From: an uncultured bacterium
GTDB lineage: Bacteria; Hydrogenedentota; Hydrogenedentia; Hydrogenedentales; Hydrogenedentaceae
Direction: 5' to 3'
Assembly (NCBI GenBank): GCA_938014335.1
Contig: CALLRP010000006.1
Coordinates: forward strand, 14,226-78,225
Length of the DNA: 64,000 bases
Under the pieces are notes generated by a model. It did no database searches, was not told where the DNA came from, and worked only from the letters and a program-made list of their open reading frames with translations. Position 1 is the first letter of the stretch, and each line of letters starts with the position of its first letter. This document shows, piece by piece, positions 16,900 to 29,292 of this stretch. Made by a program: the position numbers and the translations under genes.

Positions 16900-17191
16900 G
16901 AATTTAAAAAAAATTCTACAGAAATATTAATCGTATTATTTTTTGTTTCTATATGTTTATATATATAATTTTATCTTATATCTTCCATAAGTTTTTCTTA
17001 TATTTACTTTTATACAAATTTGCGAAAATTAATGATTATTTGTAATAAAAGCGTATTTTTCATAACTCATTAAATTTCAAACACATAAAAAGAATGAGTT
17101 ATCTTTTGTTGAATTAATGAAAAAAATGAATATAAATAAAATAATAATTTTATATGTAAATAAAAATATTCAATGAAAAGTATAAATTATG

Positions 17192-17221
17192 TTGACAAAT
17201 AGTATCTATATGTAGTATAAA
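17192..17221 (+). promoter_or_regulatory. Sigma-70-like promoter for the 31-codon Lys/Ala-rich gene
   Basis: TTGACA (17192-17197), an 18-nt spacer, then TATAAA (17216-21). It lies about 85 nt upstream of the ATG at 17306, in a very AT-rich region. Confidence 0.45.
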
Positions 17222-17305
17222 TATTATTGGTATACCACAATATAAAAGTTGTGTATGCCCTGTGTATCTTACAACTTATGTAAACTAATAAAAAGGAGAA
17301 TGGAA

Positions 17306-17401
17306 ATGGCTACAGCAAAAAAGGCCGCTGCAAAGAAGGCTCCTGCGAAGAAAGCCGCCGCAAAGAAGGCTCCTGCAAAGAAAACAGCAGGCAAAAAGTA
17401 A
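17306..17401 (+). CDS. 31-aa Lys/Ala/Pro-rich basic peptide (histone H1-like repeat type), not in the ORF track
   Basis: The ATG is preceded by AAAAGGAGA. Translation: MATAKKAAAKKAPAKKAAAKKAPAKKTAGKK. It contains two tandem 30-nt units (17324-17353 and 17354-17383, 28/30 identical). It has its own promoter-like element and a strong terminator. Confidence 0.6.
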   Translation: MATAKKAAAKKAPAKKAAAKKAPAKKTAGKK

Positions 17402-17430
17402 AGTAGGACAATAATTGCCACTCTTTTCAA

Positions 17431-17467
17431 GTACAGGTCACATTTTTATGTGACCTGTACTTTTTTT
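17431..17467 (+). terminator. Rho-independent terminator
   Basis: 12-bp stem gtacaggtcaca (17431-17442) / tgtgacctgtac (17449-17460), a 6-nt loop, then a T7 run (17461-17467). Confidence 0.75.
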
Positions 17468-17564
17468 GTATGTAGTCATTTTTTGATTGAAATTTGAGTC
17501 AATAAAAAGTCTTTTCGTAAGATTAAGAGTATTTTCGATAATATTTAATAAAAAGGAAAATTTT

Positions 17565-18428
17565 ATGAAACATTCCCTTTGTCTTTTTATGTGTTTAATA
17601 ATTGCTTCTAATATTATTTTAATCTCTAAGCCAGGTTATGCCGAAGACACTATTAAAGTAATGACTTTTAATCTCCGATATGGAACTGCTATGGATGGTC
17701 CTAATCATTGGAATAAGAGAAAAGATATTCTTGTAGAAGTTATAAAGATGTATGACCCTGATTTATTAGGGACTCAAGAATGTCTTGATTTCCAAGCCCG
17801 ATATATAGCAGAACAAATCCCGTCTTATTCTTATGTGGGAAGAGGGAGAGAAAAAGATGGTTCCAGTGAACAGACCGCCGTATTTTATAAGAAAGATTTA
17901 TGGGAAGTTTTAGATACAAAATATTTCTGGATTTCAGAAACCCCCGAAGAACCGGGCTCCAAATCATGGGATACTGTTTGCACGAGAATTGTCACATGGT
18001 TGAAATTAAAATATAAACCATCAGGTAAAGAGGTTCTTTATATTAACACGCATTTAGACCATAAAGGTGAAATTGCCCGTCAAAAAGGGGCGGAGATGAT
18101 ATGTGAAAGAATTAAAAAAGATGGAGACAACGTACCTGTTATCATCACAGGCGATTTTAATGCTGTAGGTGAGAAATCAGAAGCATGGAAAATTTTTATA
18201 AATAATGGTTTTAATGATTCATGGTTAAAAGCAAATGAAAAAGTAGGTCCACTAACGACATGGTGTGGATTTAAAGACCCCGATATGAGTTCAGATACTC
18301 GTATAGATTGGATTTTATATCAAGGACCTTTACATCCGTTAAAATCGGAGACTATTATTTACAATAAAGAAGGAAAATATCCTTCTGACCATTTCCCCGT
18401 AATAACTGTTTTCAAATGGGGCTTATAG
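17565..18428 (+). CDS. Secreted endonuclease/exonuclease/phosphatase (EEP) family protein
   Basis: ATG at 17565 yields a signal peptide (MKHSLCLFMCLIIASNIILISKPGYA). EEP motifs VMTFNLRYG, GTQE, NTHLDH, GDFN and SDHFPV. Confidence 0.85.
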   Translation: MKHSLCLFMCLIIASNIILISKPGYAEDTIKVMTFNLRYGTAMDGPNHWNKRKDILVEVIKMYDPDLLGTQECLDFQARYIAEQIPSYSYVGRGREKDGSSEQTAVFYKKDLWEVLDTKYFWISETPEEPGSKSWDTVCTRIVTWLKLKYKPSGKEVLYINTHLDHKGEIARQKGAEMICERIKKDGDNVPVIITGDFNAVGEKSEAWKIFINNGFNDSWLKANEKVGPLTTWCGFKDPDMSSDTRIDWILYQGPLHPLKSETIIYNKEGKYPSDHFPVITVFKWGL

Positions 18429-22701: not shown

Positions 22702-23007
22702 CTAATGTCTACTTCGTCGTTGACGCCTACGAATTTGCTGTTGTTTATTTTGATTTTGTCCTTTGTTTTCTTCTCCATCTCCTATCTTTTGATAAAATAA
22801 GGCTTCTTTATCGGAAAGTTTTTTGTTTTGTATCATGTTTTTAATCTTTTCAATGTCAGTTACTGTTCCCGTCGTTTTTATGTCTGTAGAAACTGAAGAT
22901 ATTTCTGTTTCTGGTTTTCCCGGTAAAGTCTGATAAATGAAAATAGCCACAAATATAATAGTGTAAAGTATTGAGACTGTTAAGAATATAGCATCATTTT
23001 TTTTCAT
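22702..23007 (-). CDS. Small single-pass membrane protein, last gene of the AmmeMemoRadiSam-linked operon
   Basis: 101 aa. N-terminal TM (IFLTVSILYTIIFVAIFIY) and a basic Q/R-rich tail. The start overlaps the stop of the upstream 1187-aa gene by 14 nt (ATGaaaaaaaaTGA). No clear SD. Confidence 0.5.
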   Translation of the reverse strand: MKKNDAIFLTVSILYTIIFVAIFIYQTLPGKPETEISSVSTDIKTTGTVTDIEKIKNMIQNKKLSDKEALFYQKIGDGEENKGQNQNKQQQIRRRQRRSRH

Positions 23008-26000
23008 GTTTATAGCACCGATTACATTGAATACAATCTATTTCTTCTATTTTTGAAATTCCGAGGTCACAGTGGTTTGGAAAAGTTCTCTGCCAGAAGA
23101 AAGAAAATATTCGTAGTGATTGAATTAAACTTAAAAATGCCCCTGTGGGACACAGCACCCGGCACCAGAAGCGGTTATATAAAAGGCTTCCGAACAAAAC
23201 AAAAATTCCAAAAATAGTTACGGTATTCGACATATCCAGCGTGAAAAAAGTAAGTAGTGGGTCAATACTTGCCATATTTGTCTCACGCAAAAAGAAATAA
23301 ACTAAAAAGAAAATAAATGCAAATATATACTTAAACTGCCTTGTCGTGTACCACATCTGCTTCGAAGGGGTAATTTTATTATTTATCCAGTTAAACTTAC
23401 TCATTAATTCTGACATGGCACCAAAGGGGCATAAATAACCGCAATATATATTCCCATTTATAAGAACCAGCAGAGGAATCCCTATGGTAAGTATGCAAGA
23501 AATAGATAAAGTAAACCGGAATTTATCAATAGATATTAGTTGAATAATGGAATAAATCCCGTATTGGATATTTAACCAAAAACCCAATACCAACATAACA
23601 GCAATTAACCAGATGATTCGAAGTACATCGTTGTGAAAGAAACGAAACACAATAGATAGGAGAATAAATATGATGAAGATGTAAACAGAATAAGTGGTTT
23701 GTGTGTGGTTTGCATGTGCAAGTTGTTGTATCTCAGAATAGCCCGTGCTTTTATCTTGAATTAATTTAGCAAACTCTTTCCCAGCAAATTGCACAGCCCT
23801 TTTTACTGCATCCGCTGTTGTTGTGGCACCGCTAACGGTATCTATTTCTGCAATCGTTTCGGGTTGAAATATATTTTTCCCTTTATAAAGAAAAAAATAG
23901 TCTTCTACCCGTGACAAATAGTCGGGTGTTTCATTAGATTGAATAACCCTGATATTTTCTATTCTACCTTCTTTGGAAACTTTAACGGCTATATCTATTT
24001 CACCACCGTATCCGATAACCTTAAATAACGAGGCAGTGGAAAAAATATAAAAAGTGTTCTCATTTTGATTTTCATCTTTTTTTGTAAACGAATAAAATCG
24101 TATTTTACGATTATCGGGAAGAGTCAATATCTCAGGTTTAATTTCCTCCCTTTCTGCGAGTTGTTGAGCAATTTGTGTGAAAACATCTTCGGGGAGAGGT
24201 ATTGTAGAACGATAATATATTTCTGTAGAGATAAAGGTTAGTATAAGAATAGGAACCAATGTATATCCAAGTGTTCTACCCCAAAGTGATGAAACACAAA
24301 ACAAAGTTTTTTGGAGTAATGGAATAAATAAAAGGACAAGAATTAGATAGAAAAAAACAATTCCTGCTGAATATTGAAGTCCCCACAGAGGGAGCAATAA
24401 CAATGGAAATACAAAGGCACCTATACCGGCTCCCAAATGATCGCATCCCTCTAAATATACTGCTAAACGAGAGGTGGTTAATTCTTTATCAGAGATTTCG
24501 AGGAATACAGAAAGCAAGAAACCTAACACAAAACCCCATAGAAAGAAAATAGCAAGATATGTGTAAAAATGAATAGATGGTATTTGAAATATGATGATTG
24601 TAAAAAATGCACATGTACAAGACAGGCAAAAGGCAATGAAAAAAGGCAATCGGCTTTTTTTGTTTACATAAAAAAGATTAAAAAAAATGGGACTTATTGA
24701 AAGTCCCAGCATAAAAAGTGAGGATAAAAGCCCCAAATAAGTGGATAATGAGCCATAAGTATATTGAAATTGAATAAAGAGCAGAAGAGAAACTCCCATG
24801 CCCACAAGTCCAATGATAAAAATGGCAAAGCAAGTTTCAGCAATCGAATAAGTGTATTTTTGTATTCTTTTTCGGAGCGACCTCTTTTTATATATCCATC
24901 GAAATAGGATAAAACTCAATGGGAAGCATATAAAAAGAAAAAGAATTATTCTTTTAATGATTATAATTTTTTCTAATAATCCTGAATACCCATGTTTCCA
25001 GAGATAAAAGAGATTACTGTATAAAAATCCAAGATATTTATTTTCAGAATTGATGAGGTAATTGCTGTCGGTAACTTTTTTAATTTCTTCATACCGATTT
25101 TTTTGAAAAATGATTCTATCCGGTGGATACAAGTCTCTCACAAGATTGGGTCTAATTTCGGGCAATTGTTGTGCAATCGTAGTTAGTCGCTGTTCCAGAG
25201 TGGGGACATGCTCACTCAAAGGATGTGTTAAAGAACCCAATAACCATGTTTCCTCCCCGGGTTTCAGCACAGTAACTTTAAATACTTGATGAAAAGTGAA
25301 AAATATAGAGGCTCCAAGGGTTGCAATTTCCCCCCCTAAAAAATTTTCACCTCCTGACATACGAATACCCACTATTCCTCTATCCGCGAGGCAATTCTTC
25401 AACAAGTTAAAAAAACTATCGGTGAGATATTGATTTGAATTTATCGTTTGAGGGTCACCTGTATACACCAAAATAATATCGAATTTTTCATTTGTAGTTG
25501 TTAAAAATAATCGAGGTTCCGTTTGTGGAAATATCAATTTGTTTGAAGTATTTAAAGATTTTTCTTGTAGTAGCGGGATAATTTTTTGGGATAATTCAAA
25601 ATCAAAAGGTATCCACAAAATTTTCTCTATTTCCTTAATTTTTATGAGGTAGGGTAATATATAAATAAAAGGTTCACCAATTAATAGAAAATTTTTTGCA
25701 TCATTTTTTTGAGCAAGGAAGGTGGACAAGAAACGCAAACCATATTCCTGATTTGGGAAATTTAAGGCAGGTTTAAGATTTCTCAACAAAATAAACTGGG
25801 TATTATCAAATCCATATAAATATTCCCCCTTCTGGGTGATAATTTTACCACCTAAATTTTCACTTTTAGTAAGATTTTCCCAGTGTGTTTTATTTTCCCA
25901 TGATTCTAATGTAAATGCTAAAAACAGAAACAATGGCAAAAGAAAAACAACAATAACTTTTTTAAATAAAACATAGTGAGATAGGGAAAAAGAGGAAGTA

Positions 26001-26557
26001 ATTAAAAAAAAGGAAACGAGACAGAAAGGAATCCAGTGAGAAAGACCGAAATATATGCACAATGAGGTAATAAGTCCACCTAACACAGCCCCGAAAGCCT
26101 CATAAGCGTATATAGAGCGAACAATTGTAGAAGGGGTAGGAATATTTTGTGAGTTCGATGTTAAATTTTGCTCCCACCAAAGTGTGCAGTGGGTAAATAA
26201 GAAACCTGTAAGAAAACTTAATCCTGCAGTTGTCAAAGAAGAATACAATACGAGGGTAGGAATATCAAATATTTCATAAGAAGGAATACCAGAAATATAT
26301 CGAGCACTGCGGATAAAAAAATGTGCACATAACCAGGCAGGAATATAAATAAGAGATGTTATTGTTAAGTATTTAAACTGTTTATAAAAAAGACGCCCTA
26401 CAAGGGTTCCGGGGATAATCCAGATAAACCAGAAAAAATAAAGAATACCCAGGGCAAATTCATTTTCTTCAATACAATGAAGGAAATCACGCACAAGGAG
26501 GGCTTGTGCGGTAATCGAAAACGCTCCTAATGCAATGGGTAATAGAAACTTTTTCAC
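22994..26557 (-). CDS. 1187-aa polytopic chimera: spermidine-synthase-like module + FMN-binding domain + NapH/NosR-like CX3CP iron-sulfur membrane module
   Basis: The GTG start shares GTGA with the upstream stop.
- Residues 1-215: TM bundle.
- About 285-445: SpeE-like fold (FDIILVYTGDPQTINSNQYLTDSFFNLLKNCLADRGIV) with a degenerate Gly motif (LLIGEPFIY).
- About 530-780: second TM bundle.
- About 830-925: FMN_bind domain with the flavinylation-type motif DTVSGAT (nt 23822-23842).
- About 955-1150: TM helices carrying CGYLCP (nt 23426-23443) and CRVLCP.
- C-terminus: C-x11-CIQCNRC. Confidence 0.8.
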   Translation of the reverse strand: MKKFLLPIALGAFSITAQALLVRDFLHCIEENEFALGILYFFWFIWIIPGTLVGRLFYKQFKYLTITSLIYIPAWLCAHFFIRSARYISGIPSYEIFDIPTLVLYSSLTTAGLSFLTGFLFTHCTLWWEQNLTSNSQNIPTPSTIVRSIYAYEAFGAVLGGLITSLCIYFGLSHWIPFCLVSFFLITSSFSLSHYVLFKKVIVVFLLPLFLFLAFTLESWENKTHWENLTKSENLGGKIITQKGEYLYGFDNTQFILLRNLKPALNFPNQEYGLRFLSTFLAQKNDAKNFLLIGEPFIYILPYLIKIKEIEKILWIPFDFELSQKIIPLLQEKSLNTSNKLIFPQTEPRLFLTTTNEKFDIILVYTGDPQTINSNQYLTDSFFNLLKNCLADRGIVGIRMSGGENFLGGEIATLGASIFFTFHQVFKVTVLKPGEETWLLGSLTHPLSEHVPTLEQRLTTIAQQLPEIRPNLVRDLYPPDRIIFQKNRYEEIKKVTDSNYLINSENKYLGFLYSNLFYLWKHGYSGLLEKIIIIKRIILFLFICFPLSFILFRWIYKKRSLRKRIQKYTYSIAETCFAIFIIGLVGMGVSLLLFIQFQYTYGSLSTYLGLLSSLFMLGLSISPIFFNLFYVNKKSRLPFFIAFCLSCTCAFFTIIIFQIPSIHFYTYLAIFFLWGFVLGFLLSVFLEISDKELTTSRLAVYLEGCDHLGAGIGAFVFPLLLLPLWGLQYSAGIVFFYLILVLLFIPLLQKTLFCVSSLWGRTLGYTLVPILILTFISTEIYYRSTIPLPEDVFTQIAQQLAEREEIKPEILTLPDNRKIRFYSFTKKDENQNENTFYIFSTASLFKVIGYGGEIDIAVKVSKEGRIENIRVIQSNETPDYLSRVEDYFFLYKGKNIFQPETIAEIDTVSGATTTADAVKRAVQFAGKEFAKLIQDKSTGYSEIQQLAHANHTQTTYSVYIFIIFILLSIVFRFFHNDVLRIIWLIAVMLVLGFWLNIQYGIYSIIQLISIDKFRFTLSISCILTIGIPLLVLINGNIYCGYLCPFGAMSELMSKFNWINNKITPSKQMWYTTRQFKYIFAFIFFLVYFFLRETNMASIDPLLTFFTLDMSNTVTIFGIFVLFGSLLYNRFWCRVLCPTGAFLSLIQSLRIFSFFWQRTFPNHCDLGISKIEEIDCIQCNRCYKHEKK

Positions 26558-28119
26558 AATTGCTCTTCGTGGAACACTTCTGCTTCAAAAACTTCAAATT
26601 CTGCACCTTCTTTATAGCCATCCGGAGATAATCCTGCTTTCATTGAAAGGTGTTCTAATGTCTGTTGTAAATTCCAATTTTGTTCTGGGGCTACCTGTGG
26701 TAAAAACAAAGCTTGATAATATCCTTTTTTCATAATTATCCCGTGTTTACCCAATTCAATTTCATTATAATGGTTTATCTTTCGTGGATGTGTAAGGAGG
26801 GATATGTCAATCTTAATCTTAGGCAACTCATCTTTTGTGATAGGGTAGAATCGTGGGTCCTTAAATCCAGCATTATACGCATTTTGTAAAACGGATTTAT
26901 ACATTGGCTTTGTTGCGAAAATTTCACCAATACATCCCCGCAAATCGTCATTTATTTTTAAGGTAACAAATGCGGCGCGAGGTGTTTTCATCGTCTCTGT
27001 TATTGTAATAGGTATTTCATTATCCAAAGGTAATTTGTTATGTTCCAGCACATATTCAAGTGTCCATCGTGCTAATTTTAATAAATCCTTTTTCTCTTCA
27101 GGTGTTAATGTCGTTGAAATATTCATAGATTTCTTTTCTCCTTTCTGCCATATTCCCGTAAAGGCAATACTAAAATAACTTACCGAATTCCGATAATCAT
27201 TTACAATCTCGCCGGATTGTTTATATTCAATAAGTTTGGTTTGTGTATTTTCGGGTAATAAATACATTAAAACTCCAATACCATAAGGACCACAAATAGT
27301 AATCCCTGTTTTTTCAATATAATCATAAAATCCCTTTACATCTCGTTTTTCAATATATTGATAAGCGACCATATCCAATTTTTTAAGATTTTCGGGTATA
27401 TTTTCATTAAAAGGTGTGTAATTGTAATTCGGTCCATAATGAGTAAAATCACTACTGGCAATTACCAATGTCTTCTCATCAATGTAGTTTTTTAATATTC
27501 GAGCTACCCTTTCTGTGGTTTCGATATCCAATCTGCCACAAATTAGAGGAATTAATTTAAATTCTCCTTTAAAATATTGTAACAGTGGTAATTCTATTTC
27601 AACGCTATGTTCTCCTTGTTGTGCTAAAGGAACTTCCTTGAAATATGGATATTTTTTTAATTCTTGTATTGTTTCTGTATCAAGAGGTATCTCGCCCATA
27701 GGTGTTTCATAACAATCAACGGAAGGGAGACTTATGAGATTTTCCAAAGATGCTCTATGGCTTGTCCCTAAAATGATTATCCGAGAATATGTCCCTTTCT
27801 CTGTTGTTTTAATTCCTCTGCATGCAGTTAAACCTGAATACATATAACCCGCATGAGGTAAAATAAGTCCGATTACATGTTCAATAAGCTCCCCATCTGC
27901 TTTATTAAACATTTCTGAGATTTGTTGTTTTAATTTTTCTGGATTTGCATCATACCATTGACCTGCAATTAAAGATTGATAAACTTTTTTAGACTCCCTA
28001 TGATTTTCTTGACTTAAAGATAAATTATCCCCACATGCAAATGGAAGAGTGACGATAAACAATAGAAAAAGAGTAATATTTGAATAATTTCTCATCCAAT
28101 AACCCCTTCTTTTTTTCAT
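26554..28119 (-). CDS. Fused AmmeMemoRadiSam system protein B (Memo) :: protein A (AMMECR1) with N-terminal signal/anchor-like segment
   Basis: 521 aa.
- Memo part, about 48-322: AGQWYDANPEKL, LPHAGYMYSG, SSDFTHYGPNY.
- AMMECR1 part, about 338-521: DLRGCIGE.
- N-terminus: MKKRRGYWMRNYSNITLFLLFIVTLPFAC(29)G, i.e. basic, then hydrophobic, then Cys.
- An alternative start at M9 is preceded by GAAGGGG. Confidence 0.88.
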   Translation of the reverse strand: MKKRRGYWMRNYSNITLFLLFIVTLPFACGDNLSLSQENHRESKKVYQSLIAGQWYDANPEKLKQQISEMFNKADGELIEHVIGLILPHAGYMYSGLTACRGIKTTEKGTYSRIIILGTSHRASLENLISLPSVDCYETPMGEIPLDTETIQELKKYPYFKEVPLAQQGEHSVEIELPLLQYFKGEFKLIPLICGRLDIETTERVARILKNYIDEKTLVIASSDFTHYGPNYNYTPFNENIPENLKKLDMVAYQYIEKRDVKGFYDYIEKTGITICGPYGIGVLMYLLPENTQTKLIEYKQSGEIVNDYRNSVSYFSIAFTGIWQKGEKKSMNISTTLTPEEKKDLLKLARWTLEYVLEHNKLPLDNEIPITITETMKTPRAAFVTLKINDDLRGCIGEIFATKPMYKSVLQNAYNAGFKDPRFYPITKDELPKIKIDISLLTHPRKINHYNEIELGKHGIIMKKGYYQALFLPQVAPEQNWNLQQTLEHLSMKAGLSPDGYKEGAEFEVFEAEVFHEEQL

Positions 28120-28314
28120 AACATCATTATATTAAATTTTAACCTGCCCATGGAGAGGATTTCGTTTGAGAAAGGCCGAAATTGTTTTTGTTTTTTGGCA
28201 ATTTTTTTTTGTGTAATAACGGTATTGCATAAGTCTGCCGAACCAAGGATGGTTTTTTTATGCCATATTTGGCAACTACCACGGCCAGAATAGATGATAA
28301 AAATTTTCTCCGAT

Positions 28315-29292
28315 TTATTGCCATATCCCGTATATCTCCTTGTTACATTTGGGACATTTTCCATTTGAAATATTGTTTTGGAGAATGTTATATCCATATC
28401 TTTCAATCAATAAAATTTTACAGAATGGACAGTAAGTATTTGAACTTTCACGGTGTATAATATTGCCAATATATACGAATTGCAATCCCTCATTTTGTGC
28501 AATTTGGCGAGCTTTCAGAAGCGTCTCTAAAGGAGTAGGGAAGAGGTGGGTCATTTTATAACGGGGATAAAACTGGGAAAAATGGAGTGGAGTATCCTTC
28601 CCCAAATTTTTCGCTATCCATGCAGATAATTGTTGTAAGTCTTCATCTTTATCATTCAAGGTGGGAATGACTAAATTCGTGACTTCAAGTTCAACGCCTG
28701 CATTTTTAGTCAGTTCTAAAGTTTTTAAAACAGGTTTTAACGAGCCATCACATACGGTTCTGTAAAATTCCTCTGAAAAACCTTTTAGGTCTATATTAGC
28801 GGAGTGAACAAAAGGTAGCAACCTTTTGTAGGGTTCTTCATTAATATATCCTGCGGTAACAAGAACATTTTTTAGTCCTTTTCCCGCGGATATTTTACAA
28901 CACTCATAAGTATACTCATAATAAGCCAATGGTTCGGTGTAGGTATAAGCGATAGAATGGCTCTTGTACTGAATTGCTAATGCTGTAATCTTTTCAGGGG
29001 CTATAAATTCAGTTTCATATTGATAAGGCTCCGCCTGTGATATTTCCCAATTCTGGCAATTTTTGCAGTGGAGATTACAGCCCACAGTAGCGAGGGATAA
29101 AATAGGTGTTCCAGGCAAAAAATGATAAAGCGGTTTTTTTTCAACGGGGTCAATATGAATAGAACAAGGATAACCATAAGTTACTGCATATAATTTTCCA
29201 TCTATATTAACCCGAATACGACACTCCCCTTTTTGTCCGTTCTCCAGCACACAATAACGGGGACAAAGTTCACATTTGACTAATGTAGTCAT
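28315..29292 (-). CDS. AmmeMemoRadiSam system radical SAM enzyme (PflA-like activase family)
   Basis: 325 aa. N-terminal Cys knuckle (CELCPRYC), rSAM motif GCNLHCKNCQNWEIS and a C-terminal zinc-knuckle (CPFC...CPKC). It lies adjacent to Memo::AMMECR1 on the same strand. Confidence 0.9.
   Translation of the reverse strand: MTTLVKCELCPRYCVLENGQKGECRIRVNIDGKLYAVTYGYPCSIHIDPVEKKPLYHFLPGTPILSLATVGCNLHCKNCQNWEISQAEPYQYETEFIAPEKITALAIQYKSHSIAYTYTEPLAYYEYTYECCKISAGKGLKNVLVTAGYINEEPYKRLLPFVHSANIDLKGFSEEFYRTVCDGSLKPVLKTLELTKNAGVELEVTNLVIPTLNDKDEDLQQLSAWIAKNLGKDTPLHFSQFYPRYKMTHLFPTPLETLLKARQIAQNEGLQFVYIGNIIHRESSNTYCPFCKILLIERYGYNILQNNISNGKCPKCNKEIYGIWQ

Follow-up and report, generated by a model that had tools for sequence, protein, structure and literature searches.

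The locus studied here raises two questions: whether a 31-codon ORF of Lys/Ala/Pro repeats, lying between genes for an AMP-binding enzyme and an EEP-family protein, is a gene at all, and what its peptide would do in the cell. The ORF is located in a 64,000-nt stretch of DNA, all of which was analysed (the window). The AMP-binding gene upstream of the ORF shares 95% identity with its counterpart in Candidatus Hydrogenedens terephthalaticus and all of its close matches are from Hydrogenedentota MAGs; by this similarity, the source of the window is Candidatus Hydrogenedens (Hydrogenedentota). The window has a GC content of 35.5% and encodes chromosomal genes of ordinary type (aspS, argCJB, exbBD and an RND efflux system). 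As judged from comparative sequence analysis, the ORF is a genuine stand-alone, separately transcribed and conserved small gene (the mini-gene), and we consider it very probable that it is a real, translated one. Our preferred reading, to which we give a probability of about 0.55, is that this monocistronic small gene of Candidatus Hydrogenedens produces an abundant polycationic peptide that binds nucleic acids or the nucleoid.

The proposed expression unit begins with a -35 box (TTGACA, 17192-17197, + strand; conserved as TGTTGAC) and, 18 nt past it, a -10 box (TATAAA, 17216-17221, +). Together these would form a near-consensus sigma-70-type promoter, with transcription predicted to start at ~17229. 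Mean pairwise identity among the seven orthologues is 0.94 at the -35 box (17190-17197), 0.93 at the -10 box (17216-17222) and 0.83 in the ORF, and these islands stand out from the post-stop spacer (0.39) and the region downstream of the terminator (0.43); the 18-nt promoter spacer has a mean identity of 0.68. The A/T-rich stretch adjoining the -35 box upstream (17150-17189, +) is possibly an UP-element-like region, with a mean pairwise identity of 0.74 in the seven orthologues compared to ~0.4 in unconstrained flanks. It is part of a ~290-nt, extremely AT-rich spacer between the AMP-binding gene and the promoter (16900-17190), which also contains a 16-nt tandem repeat at 17058-17090. By itself, the promoter pattern is not significant (one match in the window, with 0.36 expected from shuffles), and a consensus promoter scanner omitted this promoter because its rule demands a T at the last -10 position.

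The leader is ~77 nt long and contains a Shine-Dalgarno (SD) sequence (AAAGGAG, 17292-17298, +) located 7 nt before the ATG; AAAGGAGAA is kept in 7/7 orthologues. The strong SD at optimal spacing would direct translation of the 31-residue peptide MATAKKAAAKKAPAKKAAAKKAPAKKTAGKK (17306-17401, +, with TAA at 17399-17401), which is composed of six AxAKK pentads and contains 12 Lys. Transcription is predicted to end ~65 nt past the stop codon at a strong intrinsic terminator (17429-17467, +). The promoter, SD, ORF, 30-nt repeat units and terminator had all been listed in the original prediction, and we recovered each of them in its place, with the ORF sequence exact.

The mini-ORF occurs at the same position in six relatives (L002, L003, L005, L006, L007 and L008), in which the anchor protein is 84-95% identical and the gene order is kept (PP2C-GT2-TauE, AMP-binding, mini-ORF, EEP, HAD, GATase). 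It was also found on a 248-kb metagenome contig (L140), and a further orthologue was called as a 52-aa protein (P0025). The latter was the one true orthologue recovered by a protein homologue search in which the 51-aa stop-to-stop frame served as the query; the remaining matches were unrelated repeat proteins. Conservation of the ORF in relatives, as anticipated, is thus seen in the six syntenic loci, L140 and P0025. It is this conservation of the whole unit that speaks for more than a chance arrangement; the promoter pattern alone would be insufficient. The ORF had also been thought to fall far below the thresholds of ORF callers; this does not hold, given the 52-aa call and the presence of the window's exact peptide as a called gene on an ENA contig.

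In more distant Hydrogenedentota loci (anchor at most 71% identical), the mini-ORF was not found within 6 kb of the anchor and no neighbouring genes are common; because synteny is wholly lost at anchor identities of ~71% or less, this absence is uninformative on presence elsewhere in those genomes. As far as synteny reaches, the mini-gene is traced in one genus-level group only. A link to the upstream AMP-binding enzyme, through acylation of the peptide, was considered and dropped, since that gene is widely conserved without the mini-gene, which has its own promoter and terminator.

The substitution pattern among orthologues points to the peptide as the object of selection. Within codons 1-26, variable columns number 6, 3 and 15 at codon positions 1, 2 and 3, respectively. 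All ten Lys codons in this range encode Lys in every orthologue, with only AAA/AAG swaps and invariant positions 1-2, and replacements are limited to A, T, P or V at x in the AxAKK repeat. All 21 pairs have a pN/pS of 0-0.38. By these measures the peptide sequence is under purifying selection along its whole length. Together with synteny across Ca. Hydrogenedens, this upholds the proposal of a stand-alone gene selected for its peptide, although the argument originally offered for it was a different one. The coding sequence is built from a 30-nt tandem unit in 2.5 copies, and codons 7-16 and 17-26 differ only by GCT/GCC and GCG/GCA, both synonymous. Two such differences are weak evidence alone and are explained equally well by recent duplication or conversion; it is the orthologue comparison that carries the argument.

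Codon choice in the mini-ORF is likewise unusual. AAG accounts for 8/12 Lys codons (67%) compared with 19% in the window's 38 long ORFs (p = 4.5e-4; per-ORF maximum 37%), and AAA-AAA occurs in none of the six Lys-Lys pairs, as opposed to 53% genome-wide. This outlier is consistent with selection on translation. Poly(A) tracts are slippery, and messages that are translated efficiently and faithfully are expected to avoid long runs of A. By analogy, the avoidance of AAA-AAA fits a translated, probably well-expressed message.

We assign the start codon to the ATG at 17306 because the other in-frame ATG (17300) is only 1 nt past the SD and is missing in four orthologues. In L006 and L007 an in-frame stop five codons upstream of the ATG closes the frame, which limits the protein to 31 aa at most. 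Its length is fixed (30-31 aa in the seven aligned loci), and the period of five is kept in the orthologues, with KK at residues 5-6, 10-11, 15-16, 20-21, 25-26 and 30-31 of the window peptide. The peptide has a net charge of ~+12 and is free of acidic residues and of bulky hydrophobic ones. Pro was part of the original description of the peptide; however, it is not a conserved feature, as the L007 orthologue is devoid of it. A secreted antimicrobial peptide was also considered and is unlikely, since the product has neither a signal peptide nor a hydrophobic face, and the adjacent genes include none for a transporter or for modification.

The C-terminus reads ...AGCKK, ...AGCK or ...KGCAKK, with a conserved Gly-Cys, in 6/7 orthologues, L140 and P0025 (e.g., L002 8031-8046, L005 8008-8020 and L006 7841-7859; the window counterpart is 17381-17401). 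The window copy and L001 end in ...KKTAGKK, the Cys having been removed by an in-frame rearrangement. A polycation with one Cys could dimerise through a disulphide bond.

The leader RNA is predicted to fold at its very start. A conserved hairpin, GGUAUACCACAA-loop-UUGUGUAUGCC (17229-17259, +; -12.2 kcal/mol, z = -3.8), begins ~7 nt past the -10 box, where the transcript is predicted to start, and would occupy the initial 31 nt of the RNA. All seven orthologous loci fold a hairpin equivalent to it (-10.8 to -17.9 kcal/mol), including L006 and L007, where the stem is altered (GGUAUGCUAC/GUAGCAUGCC) and one A-U pair is cleanly exchanged for G-C. Neither the window (0.04 expected) nor any of the Hydrogenedens loci has the motif outside the mini-gene leader. 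By analogy, the hairpin is likely an mRNA-stabilising 5' stem-loop that would protect the 5' end; as DNA, it could equally be an inverted-repeat operator at +1.

A different leader hairpin had been reported initially, with arms AAGTTGT (17246-17252) and ACAACTT (17271-17277). It does fold in the window as AAGUUGU...ACAACUU (17246-17277, +; -7.6 kcal/mol, z = -3.4), but it is window-specific and overlaps the 3' arm of the stronger hairpin at 17229-17259, which is the conserved element; L005 and L006 have no structure at the homologous positions. We relied on individual leader folds, because consensus folding of the MAFFT-aligned leader mis-registers L006 and L007 and its pair counts there are unreliable. 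Right after the 5' hairpin, the motif CCCTG[TG]G (17259-17265) is kept in 7/7 loci and resembles the 3' arm of the terminator (17452-17460; CCTGTAC/CCTGTGC). It could in principle pair with the terminator 5' arm, to which it has only 4-5 nt of complementarity, maybe by chance.

The terminator has a 15-bp stem and a 4-nt loop (stem-loop at 17429-17462, followed by a T run to 17467; -23.2 kcal/mol, z = -8). Covariation analysis recovered 14 pairs, with 93.9% of cells paired and six compensatory pairs, compared to 20-44% of cells paired in slid controls. In L006 and L007 (7880-7925 in both) the hairpin is followed by TAAAAATTTT or TAAAGTTTT and not by a clean T run, and termination in these two most distant orthologues may be less efficient or occur by other means.

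These features bear on two readings in which the peptide itself would have no role as a cellular protein or would not be made. One is that the sense ORF is untranslated, and that the locus produces either a small non-coding RNA or, from the other strand, a hydrophobic FFA-repeat peptide resembling a type I toxin. Two antisense frames are indeed open in all orthologues, and because the wobble positions of one of them coincide with those of the sense frame, third-position variation alone cannot identify the coding strand. However, the antisense ORF has neither a conserved start codon nor an SD and varies in length from 20 to 68 aa, whereas the promoter, SD with ATG, stop codon and T run are all on the + strand, and the avoidance of AAA-AAA is meaningful only in the sense frame. 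Rfam 15 gave no matches at gathering thresholds in the whole window, a permissive scan of 17100-17600 gave only sub-threshold chance matches (best 23.4 bits compared to a threshold of 58.7), and no tRNA or tmRNA was found. We regard an untranslated sense ORF as very improbable.

Just as improbable, in our estimation, is a regulatory leader peptide, in which the ORF would act as a Lys/Ala-sensing transcription attenuator of the EEP-family gene that follows (17565-18428). The layout is the classical one for such systems, with a short ORF enriched in two amino acids, a terminator behind it and a gene on the same strand, and the EEP gene is next in all orthologues; given that the whole block is syntenic, though, this adjacency carries no information. 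An attenuator is unlikely because no antiterminator forms: the fold of 17360-17444 is no better than shuffled sequence (z = 0.08), as opposed to a terminator of -23.2 kcal/mol. Moreover, the product of the following gene is a secreted EEP hydrolase and not an enzyme of a Lys/Ala pathway, and the purifying selection on the peptide extends over its whole length.

If the peptide is made for its own sake, its nearest counterparts by composition are the bacterial H1-like proteins. The best Pfam match is to Hc2 (PF07382), at 16.7 bits compared to a cut-off of 40, and the NCBIfam model of the same family (NF038052) gives 15.5 bits (cut-off 135). The Burkholderiales H1-like model (NF038053) gives 18.1 bits (cut-off 80), and the top NCBIfam match is Rv3852 (NF050153) at 19.3 bits (cut-off 100), confined to the repeat region (profile positions 33-62). 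The H1-like composition noted at the outset is reflected in sub-threshold matches to Hc2, Burkholderiales H1-like and Rv3852 models. These matches are only compositional and far below the cut-offs, and the peptide is a member of no curated family; the low-complexity resemblance to H1-like repeats could be convergent. The Hc1/HctA domain was not found, HC2 being the sole Pfam match at E <= 0.01, and there was no Pfam match to the linker-histone (winged-helix) domain, which the peptide is too short to hold. A sequence search of the PDB, ribosome structures included, found no chain resembling the peptide. A phmmer search of 1.84 billion representatives gave 24 matches, all to long repeat proteins (90 aa or more); with a low-complexity query of 31 aa, short relatives cannot reach significance. 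Exact look-up of six variants of the peptide in the protein collection found none present.

Hc2/HctB proteins share with the peptide lysine-rich, highly basic pentamers with Ala (period 5, as in AxAKK). They are 165-237 aa long with a variable number of repeats (PMC2848022), unlike the fixed 30-31 aa of the peptide, and belong to another phylum; the peptide has no link to a developmental cycle. In the BpH-like, Bordetella-type proteins of NF038053 the N-terminal sequence is identical (MATAKKAAAKKAPAKK...), but these proteins are about five times longer and come from GC-rich Betaproteobacteria rather than from an AT-rich Hydrogenedentota genome. Pseudomonas AlgP and PhaF also have disordered Lys/Ala/Pro repeats that bind polyanions (DNA; polyphosphate granules, PMC9239181; mRNA, PMC12818456). 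Their KPAA motif, however, is repeated 9-22 or more times on a structured N-terminal domain, and the peptide has neither KPAA nor a second domain. Actinobacterial HupB/Hlp, Rv3852 and Ku tails contain PAKKA/AKKA repeats that mediate binding to nucleic acids or glycosaminoglycans (PMC2409343, PMC10739243). In these proteins, unlike the peptide, the repeats are appended to folded domains.

A nucleoid protein of the size of the peptide has a precedent in ScvA of Coxiella burnetii, which has ~30 residues and is Arg/Gln-rich, not Lys/Ala-rich. ScvA and Hq1 are small basic DNA-binding proteins enriched in the condensed-nucleoid cell form (PMC4766238); the organism and its lifestyle are unrelated, and the likeness is one of description. 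Set beside these systems, the peptide resembles a free-standing H1-like Lys/Ala tail in its shortest form; tails of this sort serve many bacteria in binding DNA, RNA or polyphosphate.

To place the peptide among similar ORFs, we scanned metagenomes for ORFs starting M-A-[AT]-[AT]-K-K-A-A-A-K-K-A, and the pattern matched at no fewer than 120 loci. Among the matches listed, GC ranges from 0.35 to 0.70 and the ORFs form a length continuum of 20-249 aa, which includes Burkholderiales-type H1-like proteins (140-200 aa) and pure-repeat ORFs of, for example, 20, 31, 51, 55, 63, 68, 72, 78 and 90 aa. H1-like proteins had been described as much longer than the mini-ORF product; this is correct only in part, as ORFs with the same N-terminus extend down to 20 aa among these matches. 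As a positive control, the 167-aa ORF of L099, which has the same N-terminus, scores 89.4 bits with NF038053 (cut-off 80), whereas none of the short pure-repeat ORFs (20-97 aa; e.g., L104, L115, L105, L197, L095 and L090) reaches a curated cut-off. The short ORFs resemble the peptide in their N-terminus and in consisting of repeats only; they differ in coming from other organisms (GC 0.35-0.67) and in their repeat variants (AAPKK, AAAPKK).

One of them is an independent 20-codon gene, MAATKKAAAKKATKKTAKKK, on contig Ga0233425_10000685 (L104, 2766-2828, -; GC 0.44), with GGGGGTGA as an SD-like element and a terminator of hairpin+T type, and it demonstrates that peptide-sized Lys/Ala genes exist outside Hydrogenedens. 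On L134 (1440-1570, +; GC 0.36), TTGCAT-N17-TAGAAT and an AAGAGG SD precede an ORF, MAAAKKAAAKKAPAKKAA..., that runs off the contig end. Six AT-rich contigs (L105, L095, L090, L127, L199 and L174) encode proteins of 55-97 aa that consist purely of Lys/Ala/Pro repeats, with a Bacteroidota-style upstream ACCATTAAATT... and no SD; none reaches an NCBIfam cut-off, and this group appears to be uncurated. A third type of scan match, on L083, L152, L121 and many GC-rich contigs, joins the MATAKKAAAKKAPAKK... tail to a SWIB/MDM2-like domain (RTPNAAFMK...PRTEVTKKVWEYIKK). On these sequence comparisons, the window peptide lies at the lower length limit of a known kind that is widespread and in part uncurated, and is a modest extension of it. 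Metagenomes widely contain Lys/Ala repeat ORFs of 20-100 aa; because these have no curated family model and are absent from large protein catalogues, they are systematically under-annotated.

What would such a peptide do? It would be made in quantity and, presumably, bind polyanions through charge neutralisation. AT-rich nucleoid DNA is the leading candidate target, and RNA could also be bound; binding would lead to compaction or shielding. By analogy with the systems above, we give a specific nucleoid or nucleic-acid role of the peptide about an even chance. Binding by six pentads may be too weak for the peptide to act by itself. RNA and polyphosphate (polyP) are live alternative targets, by analogy with PhaF (PMC12818456) and AlgP (PMC9239181), respectively.

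Under the RNA alternative, the peptide would not be a nucleoid protein but an RNA- or ribosome-associated polycation, acting as a translation modulator, an RNA chaperone or an accessory ribosome-bound peptide. We consider this rather unlikely. The signals of the mini-gene do resemble those of highly expressed translation-related genes, and ribosomal accessory proteins are typically tiny, very basic and strongly expressed peptides. The disordered KPAA region of PhaF offers a parallel, as it both binds specific mRNAs and activates translation (PMC12818456). Yet the composition of the peptide confers no RNA specificity, the mini-gene lies outside any ribosomal or translation gene cluster, and the ribosome structures in the PDB contain no similar chain. 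More doubtful still, and drawn purely by analogy, is that the peptide serves as counter-ion or organiser of another polyanion, which might be polyphosphate granules, as for AlgP, or acidic envelope polymers. AlgP, an H1-like protein, localises to polyphosphate granules and spaces them (PMC9239181), and mycobacterial Lys/Ala tails bind heparan sulphate (PMC2409343); against such a role, no polyphosphate kinase or granule gene is nearby, and an extracellular function is unlikely with no signal peptide or export gene.

The preferred reading of an abundant peptide that binds nucleic acids or the nucleoid can be taken further, to a new class of minimal free-standing bacterial "protamine" that would be the smallest dedicated nucleoid or condensate organiser. 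Such a peptide would be very abundant, produced from a purpose-built cassette (near-consensus promoter, gene-specific 5' stem-loop and anti-slippage Lys codons), limited to exactly six pentads, redox-switchable through Gly-Cys disulphide dimers in most Hydrogenedens species, and able to autoregulate its synthesis by acting on the 5' hairpin. We mention this elaborate version as an improbable speculation.

If the peptide is abundant and binds nucleic acids, the H1-like Lys/Ala tail would work as an independent module of only six pentads. The peptide would then be a minimal natural model of charge-driven nucleoid or RNA compaction, and one more small protein for the uncultured phylum Hydrogenedentota, about whose cell biology next to nothing is known. 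The cassette (promoter, 5' stem-loop, SD and terminator) is also a compact expression unit from an AT-rich uncultured lineage.

Other genes in the window have features of their own. A 1187-aa protein encoded at 22994-26557 (-) has an unusual architecture, in which FMN_bind and 4Fe-4S (Fer4_5) domains accompany a weak spermine-synthase-like region. At 26554-29292 (-), a Memo+AMMECR1 fusion protein (521 aa) adjoins a radical SAM protein; judged by its domains, this pair matches the known AmmeMemoRadiSam association, with two of its parts fused here.
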